Shown: positions 10,686 to 22,331, numbered from the stretch's first letter. The stretch: DNA of 64,000 nucleotides from an uncultured candidate division Zixibacteria bacterium (GCA_963713865.1 OY970208.1:352001-416000), one strand, 5' to 3'. The notes: a model not told the origin generated them from the sequence alone. Translations and numbers: made by a program.

Positions 10686-13600
10686 ATGCAGGGAAAAAGA
10701 AAAAACATGGGATTTGTATTGCTAATAATTTTCTATGCACTCATTCTCCTGAATATTCAGGGTAACGCTTTGGCTCAGTCTTGGCTTAATCCTGAATGGA
10801 ACTACCGGATGAGACTTACGATTAACAATCGGAGCAATTTACTTGGCCTGACAGATTATCAGGTCAAGGTTCGGCTGAACCACGCCAATTTTGATTTCAC
10901 CAAGGCAAAGCCTAAAGGCGAAGATATAAGGTTTGCCGCAAGCGATGGAACTACTTTGATAAACCACTGGATAGAATACTGGAACAATATGGCTGAATCT
11001 GCATTGGTTTGGATAAAGGTCCCAAGTGTATCTGCTTCAGATTCTGCTGTAATTTATTTCTACTACGGAAATCTGAATGCCAACAACTTCAGTAACGGAA
11101 AGGGGACCTTTGAATTTTTCGACGATTTCGAATCAAATTATTTAGCGGAAAGCGGATGGGGTATCAAAGCGCCTTTGCCTTTAGTTAAAGCGGATAATGC
11201 AACTGCAGTCTACAACAACCTGCTATATGTTTTTGGAGGGTATGACAGAGACCCGAATTGTGTTAAATATTATCTGGATGAGACCTTTGCCTATAATCCT
11301 GCAACTGATACCTGGACACAACTTAAGGATATGCCTACCGCTCGCTGGGGGCCAGTAGCAGTTGAATCCAATGGCTTAATTCATGTTTTTGCAGGAGAAG
11401 CTACTTCTGGTCTTACCGGCATACACGAAATCTATGATCCGGCTACCGACACCTGGAGAAGCTCTGCTCTGAAAAACCCCTTATCTATCCCGCAATATGG
11501 GGCAAGTGGAACTGTACACCCGGATATCATATATTTTCCAGAGGGAAAAGATGGGTACAAATATTGGATGGTATATACTCCTACTCCTCCACAATCAAGA
11601 GAAAATCCAAGCATTGTCAGGAGCCACGACGGGATAACCTGGACAGATGCCGATATCACAAATCCCGTAATTCCTTTAGGTACCTCAGGTGCCTGGAACG
11701 ACTTGGAGAATCCGGATCCTGATTTTGTTTATGTAGCAGAATATGACAAATGGTTTATGGTCTGGAATGGAGGAAATGCAGCCACTAATAGCAGGAAGAT
11801 AGCGCTGGCTTATTCTTCAGATGGTAAGAATTGGACCGAGTACAATGGAGCACCTGTTAACGGAAATACTAGCCCGGTAATACTATCTGGAGATGACGAT
11901 TTTGGCCAATCCTGGGAGAGGTCCACTGGCGGGGTTTCTGCCACAAGCTGTCCGACTTTATTCTATGAAAACGGTACATTCTACCTTTACTATGTGGAGG
12001 AAGCGAGCGGCAATAACAGGGGTAGGGCTGGATTCGCTACCTTTACCTGGAATAATGTCACAAACAGCATTGAAAACTTAGTGCGTAATGCGGGGAATCC
12101 CACTATTATCCTGCCACAAGACAGTTATTTCAAATCAGGATGCGGGCACCTGGATCTCTCCAAAAACCCAAAAAATAACCTTTACTATATGTATGTGGTG
12201 AGAGAACTGGTGAGCTCTACCTCTTACGAACTGGCTCTTTTAACCTCCCCGGATAGAATATCCTGGACAAATCGAGGCACAGTTCTGCAGAGAGGGGCAT
12301 CCGGCCAGTGGGATGATACCTATATCTACCGTTCGTCTCCAGTGGTTACCAGTACCGGTAACATATATTACTTAAACAACAAGATTAGACTTTATTACAG
12401 CGCTTTTAGGGGAGGGGATCCCAGAATAGGGATTGCAGACATCCCGGAAACAGGTCCACCTGAAAAATTCCAGGGTAATGGTCCAGCAGATTTGCCCGCT
12501 GGATTGGCAGACCAGGGTGTCATGGGGATAAAGTATGGTAACAAGATTCATCTATTCTTAAAGCAATACCACTATGAATACGACCCTGCTACTGACACTT
12601 ATACTGCAAAAGCAAATGTTCCTACACCCAGGAGCTGGGGAACCTGTGCCCTGGTAAACGGCTTGATCTATGTAATAGGTGGTTATTCTTATGGCTCTCC
12701 CAGTGGTGCTACAAATGTAAACGAGGTCTATGATCCAGTCACTGATACCTGGACAACCAGAGCGCCTATGCCGGTAAAGAAGTATGGAACTCTCAGAGAA
12801 AACCCGGTTATAGATGGTAAAATCTATGTGACTCACGGGCGGGATGGAAGCTTTTTTCTCAATAATAATTATGTTTATGACCCATCTACTAATACCTGGT
12901 CAAAGAAATCTTCAGGTATAAATCCGAGAGATGGAGTTGGCTGTGGAGTGATAAATGACAAATTATACGTGGTTGGCGGAAGAGACATTTTTTCCTGTGC
13001 CGTAGGGAGAAACTATGTGGAGGGATATGATCCAGCCAATGATAAGGGTGAAGTATGGGTCCTCTCAGATATTAGTGCAATTAAAAGAGATACTCTGGCA
13101 AAATATGAACAAGCTTACGGTTTCCTTTTTAATAAGTCTCTCTCCGGAGATGGTATATCTGCACAGCATTATCACAATTTCACCACCTGTGCTGTGGATG
13201 TTTATTGGAATATCACGGATTATTGGGGATTGGCTAACTCCCAGCCGGAAGGGGCAATAGCGTTGACTGATAACGCGAGTGATGGATCGCTGAGTTACTT
13301 CAATAACAACGGTAGACCAGAGTTTAGCTGGTACAGAAGCTCATATGGATTTTTACAGACTGGTACTTGGAATACATGGTATCCTGTGACGATCATTTGG
13401 AATGGTTCAAATAGTAAGGTAATAATTAATGGGACAGAATATCCTGTATCAGCCTCAAACACAAATTCTAACAGAGTATTTCTTCGGGTAAATAAGATTA
13501 CCCGGGAGTATTTCGACCTGGTCAGAGTACGTAAATACTCATCACCAGAGCCCGGTGTAGCCTTTGGCTCAGCTGAGTCTTCTAATCATCCACCAATCCT

Positions 13601-15260
13601 AACTCTCCGGGATACCTCCTTTTTCCTGTGTAAGCCAGAAACTACCTGCTTTAGTCTAATGACAACAGATCCGGATTCTCCTGAGGTCTTGACTCTTGAA
13701 AAGATTTTTGGCTCAGGCAATTTTACTCCCTTAACAGGACCTCCTCCCCTGAACGTCACTCACTGTTTCCTCCCGGAACCTAAAGATTCAACCTATCTTT
13801 TCGTCTTCAGGGTGACAGATTCAAAAGGAGCTTTTGTCCAGGATAGTTCTTTTGTCCATATTCATATAGATCAAAGCCCGATTTTAGCCCTTCCCAATGA
13901 TATTGACACCCTGTTTTGCAATCTGGGTGATTCCATCTATGTATCTATAAGAGGGGAAGACCCGGATACAGGCGACACTCTCAATTTAGAAAAAATCTTT
14001 TCAAAAGGAGTGCTTTTACCTTCTAACCCTGCTTTGGGGAGAGCACCTCTATTAGGACATTTCCTGTGGAAACCTGATTATTCAGATACTTCAGGTAACC
14101 CGCATCGGATTATCTTTAAACTCAAGGACCTTTGTGGAAAAGAGGTTCAGGATACATTACTTATAAGAGTCAAATTCAACCATCTACCAGTTCTTACTCT
14201 GCCTGCAGATACAATCTACAATTTGTGTAAGGCAGATACTATCTGTTTTGACCATATCTCCGCCATAGATTCAGACTCAAAAGATTCAGTCTTTATTCAG
14301 AAACTATCAGGCCCAGGAGGATATAATCCAGGCACAGGCATTTGCTGTTTCTTGCCTTCGTCAAAAGATTCTATTTACACCTTCATCTTTAAAGCCCAAG
14401 ACCTCTGTGGAGCCTCAACTTTGGACACCTTTAACTTGACCGTACATTTGAATCGAACCCCGACTCTATCCCTTCCATCTGACACCTCTTACAAGCTATG
14501 TGCTCCAGGCGATTCTATCTTCTTTGAAGTTTCCAGCTCTGATCCAGGTAATTCTCTGAGTTTAACTAAACTTTCTATTGAGGGAGAGTTAAGACCAACT
14601 GATCCTGTTCTGGACCAAGATTCAGTCAAAGTGATTTTCGTCTGGAAACCAGATTATCCTGATACTCTCTCTAACCCTCATCTTTTGATTTTTGAGGTAA
14701 GAGATAATTGTGGAGCTTCCCGCACCGATACAATCCACGTCAGGATTGAATTTAACCATCTGCCAGTCTTAGTTTCTCAGGGCAGTAGTTACCACCTGTG
14801 TGATGATAGCACCATCTGTTTCAATAATCTGATCGGTAGTGATTCAGACCCGGATGATTCTTTAAGCTTGGAGCTTGTCTCAGGTCCTAATTGCCTCTTT
14901 TTAACTACAGTGCTAAGTCCAACTTTAATCACTGGTTTTACCTGTTTCCAGACCTCAGGCACTGATACAGTCTATCCATTTATCTTTGAGCTTGAGGACA
15001 GATGCGGAACAAAAGATGTAGATACAGTCTATATAACTGTTTCCCCACCAGCTAATCTTTTAAGAGGAGATCCGAATGGAGATATAGCTGTAACCGTCTC
15101 AGATGTGATTTATATCATTAACTATCTCTTTAAAAGTGGGCCACCCCCAGTCAACTGTCCAAAATCTGGAGACGTTAACTGTGACTCCAAGATAACTGTA
15201 AGTGATGTAGTTTATCTGATAGGTTATCTTTTCAAAGGAGGACCACCACCCTGTCCCTAA
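10686..15260 (+). CDS. Large secreted multidomain protein: DUF2341 + Kelch repeats + glycoside-hydrolase-like beta-propeller + Cys-containing Ig-like repeats + C-terminal dockerin-like domain
   Basis: Signal peptide; GEDIRF and VWIKVP (DUF2341); YVFGG, YVIGG and YDPxTDTW (Kelch); HPDII and ENPSI (propeller); GDPNGD...VSDVVYLIGYLFKGGPPP. Confidence 0.85.
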   Translation: MQGKRKNMGFVLLIIFYALILLNIQGNALAQSWLNPEWNYRMRLTINNRSNLLGLTDYQVKVRLNHANFDFTKAKPKGEDIRFAASDGTTLINHWIEYWNNMAESALVWIKVPSVSASDSAVIYFYYGNLNANNFSNGKGTFEFFDDFESNYLAESGWGIKAPLPLVKADNATAVYNNLLYVFGGYDRDPNCVKYYLDETFAYNPATDTWTQLKDMPTARWGPVAVESNGLIHVFAGEATSGLTGIHEIYDPATDTWRSSALKNPLSIPQYGASGTVHPDIIYFPEGKDGYKYWMVYTPTPPQSRENPSIVRSHDGITWTDADITNPVIPLGTSGAWNDLENPDPDFVYVAEYDKWFMVWNGGNAATNSRKIALAYSSDGKNWTEYNGAPVNGNTSPVILSGDDDFGQSWERSTGGVSATSCPTLFYENGTFYLYYVEEASGNNRGRAGFATFTWNNVTNSIENLVRNAGNPTIILPQDSYFKSGCGHLDLSKNPKNNLYYMYVVRELVSSTSYELALLTSPDRISWTNRGTVLQRGASGQWDDTYIYRSSPVVTSTGNIYYLNNKIRLYYSAFRGGDPRIGIADIPETGPPEKFQGNGPADLPAGLADQGVMGIKYGNKIHLFLKQYHYEYDPATDTYTAKANVPTPRSWGTCALVNGLIYVIGGYSYGSPSGATNVNEVYDPVTDTWTTRAPMPVKKYGTLRENPVIDGKIYVTHGRDGSFFLNNNYVYDPSTNTWSKKSSGINPRDGVGCGVINDKLYVVGGRDIFSCAVGRNYVEGYDPANDKGEVWVLSDISAIKRDTLAKYEQAYGFLFNKSLSGDGISAQHYHNFTTCAVDVYWNITDYWGLANSQPEGAIALTDNASDGSLSYFNNNGRPEFSWYRSSYGFLQTGTWNTWYPVTIIWNGSNSKVIINGTEYPVSASNTNSNRVFLRVNKITREYFDLVRVRKYSSPEPGVAFGSAESSNHPPILTLRDTSFFLCKPETTCFSLMTTDPDSPEVLTLEKIFGSGNFTPLTGPPPLNVTHCFLPEPKDSTYLFVFRVTDSKGAFVQDSSFVHIHIDQSPILALPNDIDTLFCNLGDSIYVSIRGEDPDTGDTLNLEKIFSKGVLLPSNPALGRAPLLGHFLWKPDYSDTSGNPHRIIFKLKDLCGKEVQDTLLIRVKFNHLPVLTLPADTIYNLCKADTICFDHISAIDSDSKDSVFIQKLSGPGGYNPGTGICCFLPSSKDSIYTFIFKAQDLCGASTLDTFNLTVHLNRTPTLSLPSDTSYKLCAPGDSIFFEVSSSDPGNSLSLTKLSIEGELRPTDPVLDQDSVKVIFVWKPDYPDTLSNPHLLIFEVRDNCGASRTDTIHVRIEFNHLPVLVSQGSSYHLCDDSTICFNNLIGSDSDPDDSLSLELVSGPNCLFLTTVLSPTLITGFTCFQTSGTDTVYPFIFELEDRCGTKDVDTVYITVSPPANLLRGDPNGDIAVTVSDVIYIINYLFKSGPPPVNCPKSGDVNCDSKITVSDVVYLIGYLFKGGPPPCP

Positions 15261-15733: not shown

Positions 15734-15766
15734 TTGACACTATTTTTCAATAAACATATATTGAAA
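15734..15766 (+). promoter_or_regulatory. Sigma70-type promoter with an overlapping inverted-repeat operator candidate
   Basis: TTGACA (15734)-N17-TATATT (15757). The inverted repeat TTTCAATA-N6-TATTGAAA (15745-15766) overlaps the -10 box. Confidence 0.65.
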
Positions 15767-15967: not shown

Positions 15968-16549
15968 ATGGAAGAAAAATCAGGTTTTTTAAAAACTCAG
16001 ATCTGGTCAATAGTTCTTATCGTAATAATCATAGTAATGGGAGTTGAGATTCTCCTTTTAGTCCAGGAGAATAGAAAACTCCGTAATATACTTTCTCTAT
16101 CCAAAGGTCCTTTTAAAATCCTCAACCCGGAGGAAAAAGTCCCTCCCCTTATCGGAATCAACCAGAGAGATGAAGAGGTCAAAATAGATTATCCTTCCTC
16201 AAAAAAAACTGTCCTTTTCTGGTTTTCTCCTGCCTGTCCCTCCTGCGAGGAAAACCTGGCATTTTGGAAAGAGCTTTATCAGAGACATAACTCTGAAAAT
16301 TTGAGATTTATCGGAGTTACTCAGGCTGAAAAGAGTAAGGTTGAGGAGTTTACAAAGAGATTTCAGTTGGAATTTCCCGTTTTGATAATCTCTAATCTTT
16401 CACTCGTTGACCAATATAAGGTAGAGGTGATTCCCCAGACAATGCTCATCGATACCAACGGCATTGTTCAGAAAGTCTGGCCCGGACCTCTTTCAGAAAA
16501 TTACAAAAAGGAGATAGAGGAGATGCTTTCCTCATCTCCAAAACCATAG
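15968..16549 (+). CDS. Membrane-anchored thioredoxin-fold (TlpA/ResA/redoxin-like) thiol-disulfide oxidoreductase
   Basis: N-terminal TM helix, WFSPACPSC active site, cis-Pro loop VIPQT, GIVQKVWPG. Confidence 0.88.
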   Translation: MEEKSGFLKTQIWSIVLIVIIIVMGVEILLLVQENRKLRNILSLSKGPFKILNPEEKVPPLIGINQRDEEVKIDYPSSKKTVLFWFSPACPSCEENLAFWKELYQRHNSENLRFIGVTQAEKSKVEEFTKRFQLEFPVLIISNLSLVDQYKVEVIPQTMLIDTNGIVQKVWPGPLSENYKKEIEEMLSSSPKP

Positions 16550-16565
16550 AAAGGAGGTGAAATAA

Positions 16566-16721
16566 ATGAAACTATTAAGAAAAATCAGAGTCGTAGTCTT
16601 GGTCTTGGCTTTAGCTGTAGTCCTCTGGGGCTCATTTTATATGACTGCTTATGCCAAGAGATGCCTTTTAATGTGTGTATTCGACCCGGTTTATGAATGT
16701 AAGGTTATATGCTACAAATAA
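16566..16721 (+). CDS. Small secreted Cys-rich peptide 1 (51 aa precursor)
   Basis: Manual translation MKLLRKIRVVVLVLALAVVLWGSFYMTAYA-KRCLLMCVFDPVYECKVICYK. RBS AAAGGAGGTG; paralogous to the next two genes; below the ORF-track length cutoff. Confidence 0.85.
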   Translation: MKLLRKIRVVVLVLALAVVLWGSFYMTAYAKRCLLMCVFDPVYECKVICYK

Positions 16722-16831
16722 GTCTAAATGATTCGTAAAAGGACCGGGCCTTTCGACTTAGAACAGATTCGTTCAGGATTCTGAAGAGAAGTTAAGGCTC
16801 TAAACTATACATTAGAAAGGAGGTGAAATAG

Positions 16832-17038
16832 ATGAAACTTTTCAGAAATCTTAGAGCTTTTGCGCTCCTCTTTGCAGTGCTGGTTTTGGTCTTAGGATTC
16901 ACTGTGCTTCAGGCTCCTAATACTGCCAATGCTCGTCCCCTATGCTGTTATAGGGTCTGCAGTCTTGTTCCACCATATCTTTGCTGGGATGTGTGCAAAC
17001 CCTGTCCTACACTTCCCCCAATTCCTCCAGGTCCGTAA
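16832..17038 (+). CDS. Small secreted Cys-rich peptide 2 (68 aa precursor)
   Basis: Signal peptide ending ANA; predicted mature RPLCCYRVCSLVPPYLCWDVCKPCPTLPPIPPGP; RBS AAAGGAGGTG. Confidence 0.88.
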   Translation: MKLFRNLRAFALLFAVLVLVLGFTVLQAPNTANARPLCCYRVCSLVPPYLCWDVCKPCPTLPPIPPGP

Positions 17039-17077
17039 GACCCGTAAATGACTAACTGGTCTGAGGAGCAATGTCTT

Positions 17078-17103
17078 TGGGCGAGCAAGAAATTGCTCGC
17101 CCA
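17078..17103 (+). terminator. Stem-loop downstream of peptide 2 (terminator or mRNA-stabilising hairpin)
   Basis: TGGGCGAGCAA-GAAA-TTGCTCGCCCA, a perfect 11-bp stem with no T tract. Confidence 0.6.
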
Positions 17104-17173
17104 GTACAAATTTGGAAAGTAAAGTTAAGACCTGAACTCAACTTTTAAAACTTAAGAAAGGAGGTGATATTAG

Positions 17174-17362
17174 ATGAAACTTTTCAGAAATCTTAGAGCT
17201 TTTGTGCTCCTCTTTGCCATATTGGCCTTAATAACAGGATTTACTGTGCTTAATCTTCCTAAAACTGCTGATGCCTCCGGCGCATGCTGTTATTGGGTCT
17301 GCACCATTGAGGGACCTCCAGTTTGCTGGCACGTATGTCGTCCCTGCCCTAAACTGCCGTAA
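17174..17362 (+). CDS. Small secreted Cys-rich peptide 3 (62 aa precursor)
   Basis: Signal peptide ending ADA; predicted mature SGACCYWVCTIEGPPVCWHVCRPCPKLP; RBS AAAGGAGGTG. Confidence 0.88.
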   Translation: MKLFRNLRAFVLLFAILALITGFTVLNLPKTADASGACCYWVCTIEGPPVCWHVCRPCPKLP

Positions 17363-17391
17363 ATTTACCAACAAGTATGAGGAGCTAATTC

Positions 17392-17428
17392 GAGCGAGTA
17401 AAATAAATTGCTCGCCCTATCATTTTTT
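17392..17428 (+). terminator. Stem-loop downstream of peptide 3, homologous to 17078-17103
   Basis: GAGCGAGTAA-aataaa-TTGCTCGCCC followed by tatcaTTTTTT. Confidence 0.55.
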
Positions 17429-17768: not shown

Positions 17769-18278
17769 GTGAGAATGGTCTTAAAAAAACTCACCTTTAT
17801 CTTATTTTCAGTTGCAATTTTTCTTTTCTTAGCTTGCGGAAAAGGAGCAGATAAGAAAAATCCGGATTTGCCCTTTGACTTTACACTTCCGGATCTGAAT
17901 GGCAAAATACATTCCTTAAAAGAATTCAAGGGGAAAATAGTTCTTTTGAATTTCTGGGCTACCTGGTGTCCTTCCTGTAAGGAAGATATTGCGGAACTGC
18001 TTTTTATCTATAGACAGTATAAAGATTCAGGACTGGAGGTGGTTGGGATCTCTTTGGATAAAAAAGGATTAGGGGTGGTAGATTCATTTGTTAAAGAGTT
18101 GAATATACCTTATACCATCCTTTTAGGTGATGAAACTGTGGTGAAAAGTTATGGAGGTTTCAAAGGAGTACCCACAACATTCCTTTTGGATAAGGAGGGG
18201 AGAATAGTTAAAAGATACTCCGGACAGATCAATCCGGAAACTCTTAGATCAGATCTGAAAGTATGGCTTGGAAAATAA
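17769..18278 (+). CDS. TlpA-family disulfide reductase lipoprotein
   Basis: Lipobox FLAC, DFTLPDLNG, LNFWATWCPSC, GVPTTFLLD; likely start ATG 17775. Confidence 0.92.
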   Translation: MRMVLKKLTFILFSVAIFLFLACGKGADKKNPDLPFDFTLPDLNGKIHSLKEFKGKIVLLNFWATWCPSCKEDIAELLFIYRQYKDSGLEVVGISLDKKGLGVVDSFVKELNIPYTILLGDETVVKSYGGFKGVPTTFLLDKEGRIVKRYSGQINPETLRSDLKVWLGK

Positions 18279-18293
18279 TGAAAGGAGCTTGTT

Positions 18294-19469
18294 TTGAAAA
18301 ATAAAAAGAGTTTGGCCACTCTGGCTGTAGACTTGGGGGAGGAGAGGTTTTCCTTAGGGGCTTTAGCTGAGCCGATATTCCAGAGTTCCACCTTCGCTTT
18401 CAAGAACTCGGCCGAGTTAAAAAGATATCTTAAGGGTGAAAAAGGGCTATATTTCTATACCCGCTATGCTAATCCCACCATCGAGTTTGCAGAGAAGAAG
18501 ATGGCGGTCCTGGAAGGCGGCCAGTCAGCTTTAGCCACCTCCTCCGGTATGTCCGCAATCACTACTGCCCTTTTAACCTTAGTCTCTTCAGGACAGGAGA
18601 TCATCAGCACTTCTCCGCTTTATGGTGGAACTTATCATCTTTTCCAGGACCTTTTCCCCAGACTGGGAATAAAAGTCCATTTCGTGGATGCAGAGTCTAT
18701 AGAAAAGGCTGAAGATTATGTTAATTACAAAACTAAGGTACTTTTCATAGAGACTCCAACTAATCCTAATTTGAAAATAGTGAACATCAAAGAAGGAGTA
18801 AAGATCGCAAAGAAGTTCGGGTTGACCTTCGTGGCGGATAACACCTTTGCTACTCCTTTAAACCAAAAACCCTTGGAAATGGGGGTGGATGTGGTGGTTC
18901 ACAGCGCAACAAAATATCTGGCCGGCCACAGTGACCTTATCGCTGGAGTGATCATCGGAAAGAAAGATTTTATCACCAGGACAATTACAGTGATGAAGCT
19001 TTTGGGCGGATGTTTAGACCCTTTGGGAGCATTTTTATTCTTAAGGGGATTGAAGACTTTATCGGTAAGAGTTGAAAAACAAAATCAGAATGCTTTAAAG
19101 ATCGCTCAGTATTTCTCAAAACATCCCCGGGTCAGAAAAGTCTATTATCCGGGCTTAAAAAATCATAGCCAGTATAATTTAGCCAAATCCCAGATGAAAG
19201 GGTTTGGAGGAATGGTTACCTTTGAACTTAAGGATTTGAATTCAGCCATAAAGCTTCTGGATAATCTAAAGGTGTTCAAAAATGCAGTCAGCCTGGGCGG
19301 GGTGGAGTCCTTAGCCTCTATACCGGTTTTGTCTTCCCATTACGGGCTGGACGAAACAATGCTTAAAAAATCCGGGGTAACTAAAGGGATGCTGCGTTTA
19401 TCCTGCGGAATCGAGGATACAGAAGATCTTATATATGACCTGGACCAAGCCCTTAAAAAAGTAAGATGA
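18294..19469 (+). CDS. PLP trans-sulfuration enzyme (methionine gamma-lyase / cystathionine gamma-synthase-like)
   Basis: YTRYANPT, SSGMSAI, ETPTNP, HSATKYLAGHSD, AVSLGGVES. Confidence 0.9.
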   Translation: MKNKKSLATLAVDLGEERFSLGALAEPIFQSSTFAFKNSAELKRYLKGEKGLYFYTRYANPTIEFAEKKMAVLEGGQSALATSSGMSAITTALLTLVSSGQEIISTSPLYGGTYHLFQDLFPRLGIKVHFVDAESIEKAEDYVNYKTKVLFIETPTNPNLKIVNIKEGVKIAKKFGLTFVADNTFATPLNQKPLEMGVDVVVHSATKYLAGHSDLIAGVIIGKKDFITRTITVMKLLGGCLDPLGAFLFLRGLKTLSVRVEKQNQNALKIAQYFSKHPRVRKVYYPGLKNHSQYNLAKSQMKGFGGMVTFELKDLNSAIKLLDNLKVFKNAVSLGGVESLASIPVLSSHYGLDETMLKKSGVTKGMLRLSCGIEDTEDLIYDLDQALKKVR

Positions 19470-19474
19470 AAGTC

Positions 19475-19523
19475 ATAGGGGCAATTTCCAGATGGATCCA
19501 TACTGGACATAAATTGCCCCTAC
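19475..19523. repeat. GTAG-family REP-like palindrome
   Basis: ATAGGGGCAATTT...AAATTGCCCCTAC with an inner hairpin. Confidence 0.6.
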
Positions 19524-19622
19524 CACTAAATATAGAGGAGGTCATTAGATCTCCCTTATCTTAATATTATGGAAGGCTAAAATCTTTAGGTTAAAAGCTA
19601 ATAGCTATTTTCAGGAGATTTT

Positions 19623-20747
19623 ATGGCAAAGAAAATATATTTCATCGATTCCCGGGTGGAAAAATTCGATTACAAATATAGCCTCCAGGGAAGGCTGGAA
19701 AAAGCTTTAGAAAGGATTGACCTTACAAAATATTTCTTCAGGGATGAACTGGTTCCCCTCAAAATGCATTTAGGAAATAGGGGAGGACACAATACCATCC
19801 GGCCTAATTTTGTCAGACTGGTAGCAGAGCAGATGAAGAAAGCCGGAGCCAAGCCTTTTGTTACTGATTCCTCCAGGGTGAAACCCTACGAATATTTGGA
19901 AGTGGCAAATGAAATGGGGTATAACCCGCTTTCCCTTGGATGCCCGGTTATAATTGCAGATGGAATATTCGGTTTCGATTCGGTTATGGTTAAAGCTGGA
20001 AAGATTTTGAAAGAGCTAACCATTCCCTCGGCTATCTATGATGCAAAATCTATGATGGTCTTATCCCATATCAAAGGACACATAGATTCCTCCTTAGCTG
20101 GAGCCATAAAAAATTTAGCCATGGGATGCGTTTCCCCTCAGCCTCGTAAGTGTACCTGGAAAGAGGGAGGTAGAGGAAAGATGCATTTTCAAATGACCGA
20201 GATAATGAGTTGGAATGAGAAGCTCTGTACCTATTGTTACATCTGCGCAAACAACTGCCCGGTAGGAGCGATTACAGTTAGAAAGGATTTTTTTGAAGTG
20301 GATAAGGAAAAGTGCTGGAGATGTGGAAGATGTGTCAAGGTCTGCCCGGAAAAAGCCTTATCTGTGCCTTCTTCGCATGAAAATTTCTCAGCCGCCTTAG
20401 CTGAGTCTGCTAAGGCAGTATTAGATACTTTTGAACCAGGCAAAGTTTTATATATCAACTTTATTTTAGATGTTCAGCCAGAATGCGATTGTATGGCAAT
20501 CTCAGATAACCCCTTGATTCAGGACCAGGGGATTTTGCTTGGAGATGATATCGTAGCCATTGAGACTGCGACTATGGATATAATTGAAAATGCCATCCCC
20601 TTACCCCAATCCAAAGCTGAAGGGATAGAATTGAAAAAAGGGGAAGATATCTTTAGCGCCCTGCACAAGAAAGATGCCCGGACACAGATAAAGGAAGCAA
20701 AGAATTTGGGATTAGGGGAAAGCGAGTATTATTTAGAAAAAATATAA
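19623..20747 (+). CDS. DUF362-domain 4Fe-4S protein
   Basis: PLKMHLG, SHIKGH, GAIKNLAMGC, two CxxCxxCxxxCP motifs, QPECDC. Confidence 0.88.
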   Translation: MAKKIYFIDSRVEKFDYKYSLQGRLEKALERIDLTKYFFRDELVPLKMHLGNRGGHNTIRPNFVRLVAEQMKKAGAKPFVTDSSRVKPYEYLEVANEMGYNPLSLGCPVIIADGIFGFDSVMVKAGKILKELTIPSAIYDAKSMMVLSHIKGHIDSSLAGAIKNLAMGCVSPQPRKCTWKEGGRGKMHFQMTEIMSWNEKLCTYCYICANNCPVGAITVRKDFFEVDKEKCWRCGRCVKVCPEKALSVPSSHENFSAALAESAKAVLDTFEPGKVLYINFILDVQPECDCMAISDNPLIQDQGILLGDDIVAIETATMDIIENAIPLPQSKAEGIELKKGEDIFSALHKKDARTQIKEAKNLGLGESEYYLEKI

Positions 20748-20840
20748 AAAAAGCTGGTAGCAGGTAGCTCGTAGCCTGTAGCCAGTGGCAAAAAACAGAA
20801 GCCCTACCTTGCCCTCAAGGTGGGGTAATTTAGTGAAAAA

Positions 20841-21776
20841 TTGCCAAAACAATATAAAAACTATCTGATCTTACTCCTGGCAGTTACCTCCGTTTCCTGG
20901 GCCTCTATTTTCATCAAGCTCTCAGATGCACCATCCTTGATAATTGCCTTTTACCGGATGGGCTTGGCTTCCTTATTCCTTCTCCCTTTTTTCATCAAAA
21001 AAGGATTGACAGATTATAAGGTTTTAACCGGAAAGGAGATTCTACTCTGTTTTCTTTCCGGTATTTTCCTGGGATTCCATTTTGTAACCTGGATCTCTTC
21101 TTTGGCTTACACCTCAGTCTCTAGTTCAGTGGTAATTGTAGCTACTCAGCCGATATTTGTGGCTTTACTCACCCCTTTGATCCTAAAGGAGAAAATCGAT
21201 CTGTGGGTATTTATAGCAATTTTAATTGCCCTGACCGGGATTTTCATCATTGCAGGTGGAGATGTAAAAATCGTAGGGGAAAACCTTAAAGGTGATATTC
21301 TATCTTTGATCGGTGCAATTATGGCTGCATTATATCTGACTTTGGGAAGAAGTATCCGGAAAAAATTGAACCTTCTTCCATATATTTTTCTGGTCTATTC
21401 TATCTCTACTGTGGTAATATTCATTTTCTGCTTATTTTCTGGAGTTAATTTCTCTCCAGTTACCTGGAAGAACCTTATCCTTTTTATCCTTTTGGCTCTG
21501 ATACCCACCCTTATCGGTCATACCCTCTATAATTACATCCTGAAATATGTCAAAGCCCATCTAGTAGGGATGACTATTTTGGGTGAGCCTTTAGGGGCAA
21601 CCCTCCTGGCTTTTCTGATCCTCAAAGAGATACCCGCCATCACTGTTTATCTTGGCGGGATTTTAATCTTCATCGGCATCTGGATAGCCGTTCTGGAGGG
21701 AAAGAGCTTTAGGTTAGCTGCAGCGTCCGGGTTTATCCTTGACGTTTTTTGTCTTATCGTAGTGCGACCCTTTTAG
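20841..21776 (+). CDS. DMT/EamA family transporter
   Basis: About 10 TM helices; IAFYRM, GFHFVTWISSL, QPIFV, GHTLYN, GEPLGA. Confidence 0.88.
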   Translation: MPKQYKNYLILLLAVTSVSWASIFIKLSDAPSLIIAFYRMGLASLFLLPFFIKKGLTDYKVLTGKEILLCFLSGIFLGFHFVTWISSLAYTSVSSSVVIVATQPIFVALLTPLILKEKIDLWVFIAILIALTGIFIIAGGDVKIVGENLKGDILSLIGAIMAALYLTLGRSIRKKLNLLPYIFLVYSISTVVIFIFCLFSGVNFSPVTWKNLILFILLALIPTLIGHTLYNYILKYVKAHLVGMTILGEPLGATLLAFLILKEIPAITVYLGGILIFIGIWIAVLEGKSFRLAAASGFILDVFCLIVVRPF

Positions 21777-21830
21777 GGTCGCCAAGAATCGTAGGGGCAC
21801 GTTGTCCTGCCATCGGCGGGATGCCCCTAC
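21759..21830. repeat. Two GTAG-family REP-like palindromes
   Basis: GTAGTGCGACCCTTTTAGGGTCGC and GTAGGGGCA...ATGCCCCTAC. Confidence 0.6.
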
Positions 21831-21878
21831 TTTTTTCACACCAAATAGTCTATTAAATCCTCACGTATTATAATTAAA

Positions 21879-21895
21879 TTGAGACTAAATCTCAA
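21879..21895 (+). promoter_or_regulatory. Fur-box-like palindrome upstream of fur-feoA
   Basis: TTGAGACTAAATCTCAA resembles the 7-1-7 consensus TGAGAATnATTCTCA. It lies just downstream of TATAAT (21869-21874) and 10 nt before the fur ATG at 21906. Confidence 0.7.
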
Positions 21896-21905
21896 ATATA
21901 AATTT

Positions 21906-22331
21906 ATGAAAAAAGAAACTGAAATATTTACAAAATACCTGAAGACCAAAAAACTCAGCTTTACTAAGGAAAGGAAGTTTATCCTGGCTCAGGTTTTTGC
22001 TACAGATGGTCATCTGGAAGCAGATGAGATCTTTATGCAACTTAGAAAGGCAAAAAAGGATGTTTCCCGGGCTACGGTTTATCGGACTCTGGGGCTTCTG
22101 GTCGACTCTGGCCTGGTCAGGAAAGTCTATCTGGGAGAAGACCATATCCATTACGAGCACACCTTCGGGCATACTCATCACGACCATCTGGTATGCATAA
22201 AATGCGGCAAAGTGATTGAATTCTCGGATAAAAAAATTGAAAGACTTCAGGCAAAGATCTGCCAGAAAAGCCGGTTTCAAGAGATAAGCCATACCGTGCA
22301 GATTTTTGGTTATTGTAAAGATTGTAGATAG
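21906..22331 (+). CDS. fur: Fur family transcriptional repressor
   Basis: HLEADEI, SRATVYRTL, HTHHDHLVCIKCG, GYCKDC; start taken as ATG 21906. Confidence 0.93.
   Translation: MKKETEIFTKYLKTKKLSFTKERKFILAQVFATDGHLEADEIFMQLRKAKKDVSRATVYRTLGLLVDSGLVRKVYLGEDHIHYEHTFGHTHHDHLVCIKCGKVIEFSDKKIERLQAKICQKSRFQEISHTVQIFGYCKDCR

Follow-up and report, generated by a model that had tools for sequence, protein, structure and literature searches.

A membrane-anchored redoxin paired with tiny Cys-rich peptide genes in Zixibacteria: a candidate two-part module for exported hairpin peptides

Small cysteine (Cys)-rich peptides encoded beside a thiol oxidoreductase of their own are already known from bacteria, and the locus studied here, a redoxin gene followed by three tiny peptide genes at positions 15968-17428 of a 64,000-nucleotide (nt) stretch from an uncultured candidate division Zixibacteria bacterium (GCA_963713865.1 OY970208.1:352001-416000; this whole stretch is called the window), can be set beside them. 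As described for bacteroidetocins (class IIf, Bacteroidales; PMC6671954), Bacteroides are devoid of general disulfide machinery, bacteroidetocin loci encode their own thiol oxidoreductase, and deletion of this enzyme attenuates toxin activity. The Zixibacteria locus resembles them in belonging to an outer-membrane-bearing member of the Fibrobacteres-Chlorobi-Bacteroidetes (FCB) group without general disulfide machinery, and in placing a small Cys peptide beside its own thiol oxidoreductase, with neither an enzyme for ribosomally synthesized and post-translationally modified peptides (RiPPs) nor an obvious immunity gene. Features of bacteroidetocin loci only (PMC6671954) are a double-glycine leader of 15 amino acids (aa), an ATP-binding cassette (ABC) transporter carrying a C39 peptidase, and a protein with five transmembrane segments: no bacteroidetocin-type double-glycine site is present in the peptide leaders here, and neither an ABC/C39 transporter nor a five-transmembrane gene recurs among 34 loci whose flanking open reading frames (ORFs) of at least 90 aa were clustered by all-against-all BLAST rather than by Pfam. 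Moreover, the mature bacteroidetocin has 42 aa, 4 Cys and a charge of +2 (PMC6671954), whereas here leaders of Sec type precede predicted hairpin cores of 17-45 aa with 4-9 Cys. Thus, an earlier note on this DNA overstated the case in speaking of a new system. The gene module is solidly supported, peptides with a dedicated thiol oxidoreductase being a kind already represented by bacteroidetocins and MauD/MauE, while what is new is its minimal Sec-dependent form, with no transporter, peptidase or other conserved partner, and its hairpin Cys framework.

MauD/MauE, which act in maturing methylamine dehydrogenase's small subunit, provide a second parallel, since there too (10.64898/2026.03.05.709764) a CxxC protein of thioredoxin fold is devoted to a small, exported and very Cys-rich polypeptide. 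They differ in that the substrate here would be a free hairpin peptide and not an enzyme subunit, and in that MauE is unlinked to the module. The redoxin resembles ResA, StoA and TlpA in fold and Pfam families, in its N-terminal anchor, and in having a CxxC motif and a cis-Pro loop; unlike ResA and StoA, it is paired with peptide genes and does not lie beside cytochrome c maturation or sporulation genes. Dedicated thiol-disulfide oxidoreductases, BdbA and BdbB, also serve sublancin, another small disulfide-bonded peptide, and the pediocin protein PedC is likewise a dedicated redox helper for such a peptide (PMC4919988). Gram-positive disulfide bacteriocins nevertheless differ from the present locus in having no outer membrane to cross, mostly double-glycine leaders with ABC export, and immunity genes. 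Among animals, tachyplesin, polyphemusin, arenicin, gomesin and the theta-defensins are strongly cationic beta-hairpins with laddered disulfides. The likeness to them drawn in the earlier note stands as regards the antiparallel hairpin, here a predicted one, with matching cross-strand Cys, and the richest family members, with C-x-C-x-C, recall the theta-defensin ladder. It fails as regards charge, which spans -5 to +3 in this family, and there is no sequence relation and a different biosynthesis, the contrast being drawn with general descriptions of these peptides.

The locus is read as probably forming a self-contained two-part module, in which an anchored oxidoreductase of TlpA/ResA/StoA type would install or proof-read the disulfides of Sec-exported hairpin peptides. 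Its genes are the following:

15968..16549, plus strand: redoxin gene, 193 aa, with a hydrophobic N-terminal segment and CPSC
16566..16721, plus strand: peptide gene 1 (class A), 51 aa: signal-like leader of 30 aa (ending AYA), core of 21 aa with 4 Cys
16832..17038, plus strand: peptide gene 2 (class B), 68 aa: leader of 34 aa (ending ANA), core of 34 aa with 6 Cys and a tail rich in Pro
17174..17362, plus strand: peptide gene 3 (class B'), 62 aa: leader (ending ADA), core of 28 aa with 6 Cys

An ORF listing bears out the three small ORFs of the earlier note at these positions and with identical translations, and its further descriptions of them also hold. All three leaders end as it had described, all three peptides contain C-x3-C-x7-C-x3-C (with 4, 6 and 6 Cys), and their net charges of +2, +2 and +1 agree with the approximate +1 to +2 proposed. 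The shared ribosome-binding site (RBS) context, AGAAAGGAGGTGA(A/T)AT (16 nt), occurs three times in the 64-kb window, in every case directly before one of the three peptide genes, and 0 times in each of 100 shuffles of the window. Peptide genes 2 and 3 are in addition 81% identical in their leader-region DNA over 104 nt.

The pairing of redoxin and peptides is maintained across Zixibacteria. Within a close set formed by the source genome and 60 relatives (strong peptide match at E < 1e-10, redoxin orthologue at E <= 1e-20), peptides and redoxin orthologues were found in the identical 14 of the 61 genomes. Each of the 13 related loci of the order has a redoxin, 63-82% identical and with CPSC or CPAC, immediately 5' of one to six peptide genes of the same strand, giving 37 peptide genes in 14 loci with the window included. 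A phylum-wide set of 285 genomes was evaluated with a broader peptide profile and with a redoxin subfamily profile at E <= 1e-25. The peptide family is present in 58 of these genomes (46 of the 198 high-quality ones, and 30 of 130 genera) and the redoxin subfamily in 47, all of which are among the 58. In 47 of 47 the redoxin is directly 5' of a peptide gene and on the same strand, so that the Cys framework and the synteny with the redoxin are kept in homologues, as the earlier note had anticipated. Counted by match, on two coordinate tables compared by eye, 48 of 49 redoxin matches are on the contig and strand of a peptide match and just 5' of it; the sole exception, in genome G002, is an additional copy close to where its match range ends.

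The pairing persists at larger distances. Fifteen of 20 distant loci have an intact CxxC redoxin directly 5', 29-38% identical to that of the window, and the other five comprise one redoxin devoid of CxxC, one broken, one cut by a contig end and two loci with none; four further peptide-only loci were confirmed beyond these 20. Eleven peptide-bearing genomes show no recognizable intact redoxin, corresponding to one peptide fragment, one broken redoxin, three contig ends (G241 inspected, G150 and G188 judged from coordinates alone) and six true exceptions. Flank clustering recovered the redoxin in 30 of the 34 loci. The next commonest family appears in only five, which are all near relatives of the window, so that two parts make up the conserved unit. 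Beside the module, these 34 loci have no conserved gene for a RiPP enzyme, an exporter or immunity, which sustains the earlier statement that no RiPP tailoring enzyme is involved. Radical SAM genes lie near it in a single locus (L030), on the opposite strand, and the peptides are not of the SCIFF/ranthipeptide or sactipeptide kind, RiPPs whose radical SAM/SPASM maturase is encoded next to the precursor. Locus L058 (4083-6039, genome G197) contains two tandem redoxin and peptide pairs, the second peptide lacking one framework Cys.

The redoxin surpasses the Pfam cut-offs for AhpC-TSA (PF00578, 50.3 bits against 26), Redoxin (PF08534, 49.8 against 26.6) and Thioredoxin_8 (PF13905, 37.2 against 27). 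It has an N-terminal transmembrane helix, a CPSC active site at residues 90-93 and a cis-Pro loop with P156, so that its description in the earlier note as a membrane-anchored CPSC thioredoxin-fold protein just upstream of the peptide genes is upheld. Its closest solved structures are those of Bacillus subtilis StoA (3erw, E 1.3e-13) and then ResA (1st9), with C90, C93 and P156 aligning with the StoA/ResA active site and with the Pro of their I/L-P-T loop. Identity with ResA, StoA or MauD is nonetheless ruled out by scores far under the NCBIfam cut-offs (ResA NF002854, 60.2 against 170 bits; StoA NF041202, 57.8 against 210; MauD TIGR02661, 23.2 against 188.6, this last match being a weak one with an E of 3.9e-5), and by its sequence the redoxin belongs with the TlpA-like proteins of the thioredoxin-fold superfamily.

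Across 24 aligned members of the subfamily, otherwise just 30-80% identical, C90, C93, P156, W100, W171, E27 and N35 are invariant. In the anchor and the helix that follows it (residues 13-51; window 15968-16120), E27, L31, N35 and L38 are invariant in the 24 members. The invariant polar residues E27 and N35 of the anchor suggest a specific partner within the membrane. The CxxC motif is CPSC or CPAC in the order of the window, and CSVC, CSAC, CDAC, CESC, CGAC and others elsewhere in the phylum. A redoxin orthologue at L056:4234-5028, 5' of an intact 6-Cys peptide gene, has no CxxC and is either degenerate or dithiol-independent.

Regarding the peptides, none corresponds to a Pfam or NCBIfam family, with only chance matches under the cut-off at E <= 1, and no description of the family was found in the literature searched on Zixibacteria and on Cys-rich or disulfide peptides with oxidoreductases; the family is thus uncharacterized, as the earlier note had supposed. 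Peptide gene 2 has eight close database relatives of 65-72 aa in a word-indexed search. A hidden Markov model search of 1.84 billion representative proteins produced 34 clusters (50% identity) at E <= 1e-3; three of these, made up of long or repetitive proteins, are clearly unrelated. The family is therefore real but small. Phage and plasmid collections gave no tblastn matches, and in the ESM Atlas the top feature score was 0.81, under the lead threshold.

Among 92 scored family sequences, Cys counts are 4 in 10, 5 in 1, 6 in 58, 7 in 13, 8 in 3 and 9 in 7, and three Cys columns are invariant in every alignment. The core classes include one with 4 Cys (window peptide 1), several with 6 (window peptides 2 and 3), and others with 7, 8 and 9 that occur in larger arrays. 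The 4-Cys class is usually encoded by the first gene after the redoxin, the orthologue of peptide gene 1 being first in 8 of 13 related loci of the same order. Cores have 17-45 residues and 4-9 Cys, which make up about a fifth to a third of them, with CC, C-x-C and C-x3-C motifs, Met and Trp; metallothionein-like metal binders combine metal-thiolate clusters with few aromatic residues, and the cores, high in Cys, are rich in Trp and Tyr. In members with an odd count the extra Cys nearly always produces C-W-C, two residues past the C-side loop Cys, and once it is set aside every peptide class has, on our own reading of the alignments, an even number. The predicted mature charge ranges from -5 to +3 across the family and is mostly near 0, and some distant members have a loop of four residues where the others have seven.

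The commonest loop, C-T-x-x-P-P-x-x-C, is present in most 6-Cys members. The reactive loop of Bowman-Birk and SFTI inhibitors is a disulfide-closed one of nine residues, with Thr after the first Cys and Pro-Pro at fixed positions. Compared with this motif in its general form, the peptide loop has the same length and the same Thr, and its Pro-Pro is placed one position earlier, a resemblance that serves as a lead. In locus L032 (7198-8040), a gene for a secreted trypsin-like peptidase follows the peptide array, an arrangement seen in that one locus and lineage only.

The leaders look like Sec/signal peptidase I signals. Their n-region has a net charge of +2 to +5 and is followed by an uncharged stretch of 15-28 residues. 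By a home-made heuristic rule, a site with small residues at -3 and -1, no more than eight residues before the first core Cys, was recognized in 92 of 94 sequences; residue -1 is A in 76 of them and otherwise G (11) or S (5). They are hydrophobic and 30-36 aa long, end in A-x-A in the peptides of the window, and often have Pro about six residues before the cleavage-type site. Highly similar within the order of the window, they diverge across the phylum, while the core framework remains constant. Pooled within classes, the ratio of nonsynonymous to synonymous substitution rates (dN/dS) amounts to 0.08 in the core and 0.21 in the leader, both values being rough because dS is near saturation; purifying selection thus acts within classes on both parts, and more strongly on the core. 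Since relatives occur in 58 of the 285 genomes and within-class dN/dS is low, the peptide genes are considered real and not chance ORFs. A conotoxin-like arrangement, with a hypervariable core behind a conserved leader, was rejected, because the core ratio is the lower of the two and the leaders diverge phylum-wide.

The source genome, a single contig of 2.72 Mb with 40% G+C and 94% complete, contains six Omp85-family matches and two signal peptidase I genes. By the former it has an outer membrane, and with a signal peptidase I also present, Sec export would mean delivery to the periplasm. The peptides, called secreted in the earlier note, would thus be exported as it had claimed, although their destination is probably the periplasm. 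In the proposed mechanism the redoxin would be anchored in the inner membrane by its N-terminal helix, with its CxxC domain facing the periplasm, and would be encoded ahead of its one to six peptide genes. Each peptide would be exported by Sec and cleaved by signal peptidase I at the small-x-small site, and its core of 17-45 residues would then fold into a beta-hairpin with Cys facing across the strands. The cis-Pro groove of the redoxin would bind the N-terminal strand of the peptide, C90 would attack, or donate to, the loop-proximal Cys (C43 in peptide 2), and a ladder of two to four cross-strand disulfides would be installed or proof-read. A MauE homologue with a CXC motif may act as electron sink, two CcdA proteins being present as well. 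The mature peptides would remain in the periplasm unless released by some further route.

Structural models concur with several of these steps. AlphaFold 2 (AF2), run with the family alignment, models peptide 2 as a helix (residues 2-27) and two strands (37-43 and 51-57) with block predicted local distance difference test (pLDDT) values of 93 and 85, and peptide 1 as a helix (2-28) and strands 32-39 and 43-50 with pLDDT around 80. Both peptides are accordingly predicted as a signal helix followed by a beta-hairpin, in agreement with the antiparallel hairpin expected in the earlier note. From the strand assignments, the in-register cross-strand Cys partners would be, for peptide 2, C43 with C51 and C39 with C55, and for peptide 1, C37 with C45 and C33 with C49. 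A Foldseek search of the peptide 2 model against the PDB returned nothing (best E 6.7), as expected for a query made of a 20-residue hairpin and a helix.

When the periplasmic domain of the redoxin was modelled together with mature peptide 2, the complex scored 0.62, 0.62 and 0.60, against 0.05 for the best control, with a partner pLDDT of 70 and with runs agreeing in at least 85% of contacts. In calibration, 58 of 80 complexes of solved structure reached the mark, as did 2 of 110 mismatched pairs, counts that hold only roughly here because our own alignments were used. The modelled interface comprises redoxin residues 85, 87, 89-93 (CPSC), 152-156 (cis-Pro loop) and 172-174, and peptide residues 40-46, 49, 51 and 54. 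In this model, C90 and the cis-Pro loop lie against the invariant loop-proximal C43 of peptide 2, the arrangement in which thioredoxin-fold enzymes canonically hold a substrate strand.

Several points weigh against this reading. StoA and ResA, the closest solved relatives of the redoxin, are reductases, and for this reason the oxidative folding put forward in the earlier note is kept as an inferred step. The source genome encodes two CcdA-type proteins, which offer a reducing route, even though the presence of CcdA is not proof of a reducing role. The CxxC dipeptide varies across the phylum, so that no redox potential can be read from it, and one redoxin, that of L056, has no CxxC. MauE is found in 271 of the 285 phylum genomes and does not track the module, which makes its co-distribution uninformative. 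Six genomes (G080, G089, G151, G235, G239 and G242) have a peptide gene and no subfamily redoxin, adjacent or elsewhere, at E <= 1e-25. The Cys count is odd (5, 7 or 9) in 21 of the 92 family sequences, so that the even counts noticed earlier hold for the three peptides of the window and fail across the family; an odd count implies at least one free thiol in those peptides, or metal binding. The lack of an even-Cys bias among predicted exported proteins of the source genome (111 with even and 138 with odd counts, against 534 even and 650 odd among cytoplasmic ones), which is invoked below in favor of the reading, comes from a weak test made on crude gene and signal calls with no positive control. 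Finally, the score of the complex model may partly reflect solved thioredoxin-substrate complexes.

Formation or isomerization of disulfides is nonetheless regarded as the somewhat likelier role of the redoxin. The source genome has no match to VKOR, DsbB, DSBA or Thioredoxin_4, and in a cell with no DsbA, DsbB or VKOR, and with no even-Cys bias in its exported proteins, a disulfide-dependent peptide would need a catalyst of its own. Five Redoxin-fold genes above the cut-off and one weak match below it were recognized in this genome, as was a MauE homologue of 152 aa (85.7 bits) with a C-G-C-F motif at L072:1480-1938. In a 2026 preprint (10.64898/2026.03.05.709764), MauE from a Calditrichota and from a Thermodesulfobacteriota species substitutes for DsbB in Escherichia coli, the X of its CXC site is often Gly and the next residue Phe, and MauE probably acts through a thioredoxin-fold partner such as MauD. 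An oxidizing route is therefore plausible, given a MauE with a CXC motif in the genome and MauE replacing DsbB in that work. DsbE-like proteins of Mycobacterium tuberculosis help oxidative folding (PMC3853704). The MauE gene, which is outside the window, directly follows ORFs for a membrane-anchored rhodanese-like protein of 171 aa and an exported protein of 243 aa (L072:958-1938).

Were the redoxin fed by CcdA, the peptides might instead be kept reduced, as periplasmic thiolate carriers of copper, of another soft metal or metalloid, or of sulfane sulfur, or as a redox buffer, a role considered unlikely. TlpA reduces Sco and CoxB before copper insertion, and both the reductase character of the nearest solved relatives and the two CcdA genes would suit such a function, but a periplasm without DsbA, DsbB and VKOR has less need of a private reductase. 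The abundance of Cys in the cores, in CC, C-x-C and C-x3-C motifs and accompanied by Met and Trp, would be equally suitable, as would the odd counts. However, in the models the Cys stand as in-register cross-strand pairs of a confidently predicted hairpin, which is the geometry of a disulfide ladder and not of a metal cluster, and their number is even in every class once the extra C-W-C Cys is removed. Fur-family regulators are located near the module in two contexts (window 21879-22331, and L029:6535-6921, which is unrelated and faces the module), and cytochrome c genes lie 5' of it in L031 and L032, but each of these neighbors is confined to one lineage, and the 34 loci have neither a metal transporter nor a metalloenzyme as a conserved neighbor of the module.

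More doubtful is the possibility that the peptides are released antimicrobials of bacteriocin type, Sec-dependent cousins of the bacteroidetocins for which the redoxin is only a folding helper. The patchy occurrence of the module (58 of 285 genomes, 30 of 130 genera) and its arrays of up to six distinct classes would fit such peptides, as does the fact that bacteroidetocin loci (PMC6671954) also pair a Cys peptide and a thiol oxidoreductase with no obvious immunity gene. Against it, the 34 loci have in common neither an exporter nor a C39 peptidase nor a route across the outer membrane, an outer membrane is present, the net charge of -5 to +3 is mostly near 0, the cores are strongly conserved within classes across genera (dN/dS 0.08), and the phage and plasmid collections contained no matches. 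That the peptides are uncleaved single-pass membrane micro-proteins, whose Cys-rich ectodomain partners the redoxin, for instance as a regulatory or electron-relay subunit, is very improbable, since a small-x-small site, often with Pro some six residues before, is kept in 92 of 94 sequences despite divergent leaders and the genome has two signal peptidase I genes, even if, for a signal peptide, an uncharged stretch of 15-28 residues is long, this stretch is modelled as a single helix (2-27), and the invariant E27 and N35 of the redoxin anchor suggest helix-helix contacts in the membrane.

Returning to disulfide-laddered peptides matured by their own oxidoreductase, the products would be near-neutral, hydrophobic and aromatic. 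Over a housekeeping function we tentatively favor that of a stable binder or effector, for instance one that inhibits an envelope enzyme (own or foreign) or a bacteriocin-like peptide, since the patchy distribution of the module and its growth into arrays suggest an accessory, possibly competitive or protective, role. The near-neutral charge and the strong conservation argue against a classical cationic antimicrobial. A bolder version can be offered as a conjecture: that Zixibacteria make a truly bacterial family of ladder-disulfide hairpin mini-proteins, similar in architecture to tachyplesins and theta-defensins and requiring only Sec and a private TlpA-like oxidase or isomerase fed by MauE, and that the members of each array, C-W-C free-thiol forms included, are distinct effectors or inhibitors for different envelope targets.

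In either redox direction the locus defines a peptide family and a matching redoxin subfamily with near-perfect co-occurrence across an uncultured phylum, and the peptide genes, of 51-68 codons, would escape standard gene callers and biosynthetic-cluster tools. If the oxidizing reading is true, a bacterium without DsbA and DsbB gives one substrate family a private disulfide chemistry, the peptides are a natural candidate client for the newly proposed MauE pathway, and the pair is a compact, minimal and portable two-gene kit for disulfide-laddered hairpin peptides; if the reducing or metal reading is true, they are a new kind of periplasmic thiolate peptide. Under both, they are short enough for direct synthesis and testing.

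Around and downstream of the four genes, the following features were recognized:

15734..15762, plus strand: promoter-like site, TTGACA, 17-nt spacer, TATATT, about 200 nt 5' of the redoxin gene
17077..17104, plus strand: 12-bp stem-loop with no T-run 3' of the stem, between peptide genes 2 and 3
17394..17425, plus strand: terminator-like stem-loop with T-run at the end of the module, 8-pair stem at 17394-17415 and T-rich tail (terminator scan)
17769..18278, plus strand: second TlpA/ResA-like redoxin, a lipoprotein with WCPSC (Pfam AhpC-TSA, 89 bits), context outside the conserved module

The promoter-like site is the top match of the scan, with 11 of 12 consensus positions, and is a consensus match only. 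This site, the shared RBS contexts, the terminator-like stem and the order of the redoxin gene followed by three peptide genes are consistent with the four genes forming one operon-like unit. An 87-nt stretch with the stem-loop at 17077..17104 has a folding energy of -28.1 kcal/mol (z = -4.3), and 0 of 200 shuffles were as stable; the 3' arm of this stem-loop is repeated after peptide gene 3 (repeat family D3), and it may be an mRNA-stabilizing or attenuating hairpin.

Expression, a point raised in the earlier note, receives a weak hint for peptide gene 3, which is covered by contigs of two metatranscriptome runs over 170 nt (4 differences) and 206 nt (8 differences over 202 matching nt); contigs do not resolve transcript ends, and DNA may be carried over in RNA libraries. 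Metatranscriptome contigs also cover pieces of the start of the redoxin gene and of the region after peptide gene 1. Four sequencing runs were compared as contigs, the share of the stretch covered being at most 0.23 and the uncovered parts being uninformative.

Downstream of the module, a plus-strand block at 17769-22331 encodes the TlpA-like lipoprotein with WCPSC, a Cys/Met pyridoxal phosphate (PLP) enzyme, a DUF362 protein with two 4Fe-4S motifs, an EamA transporter and a Fur regulator, and may be a cysteine- or redox-related operon. These genes were rejected as part of the module, the second redoxin, the PLP enzyme, the DUF362-ferredoxin, EamA and Fur being conserved only in the window's own family; the second redoxin itself is downstream in 5 of 13 related loci (L024, L025, L026, L027 and L034). 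Just 5' of the module, at 10686-15260 on the plus strand, is the gene for a signal-bearing protein of 1524 aa with Kelch/propeller-like and Ig-like repeats. It ends in a dockerin-like, duplicated Asp/Asn-rich motif, and partial relatives of it flank the module in L028, L031 and L065.

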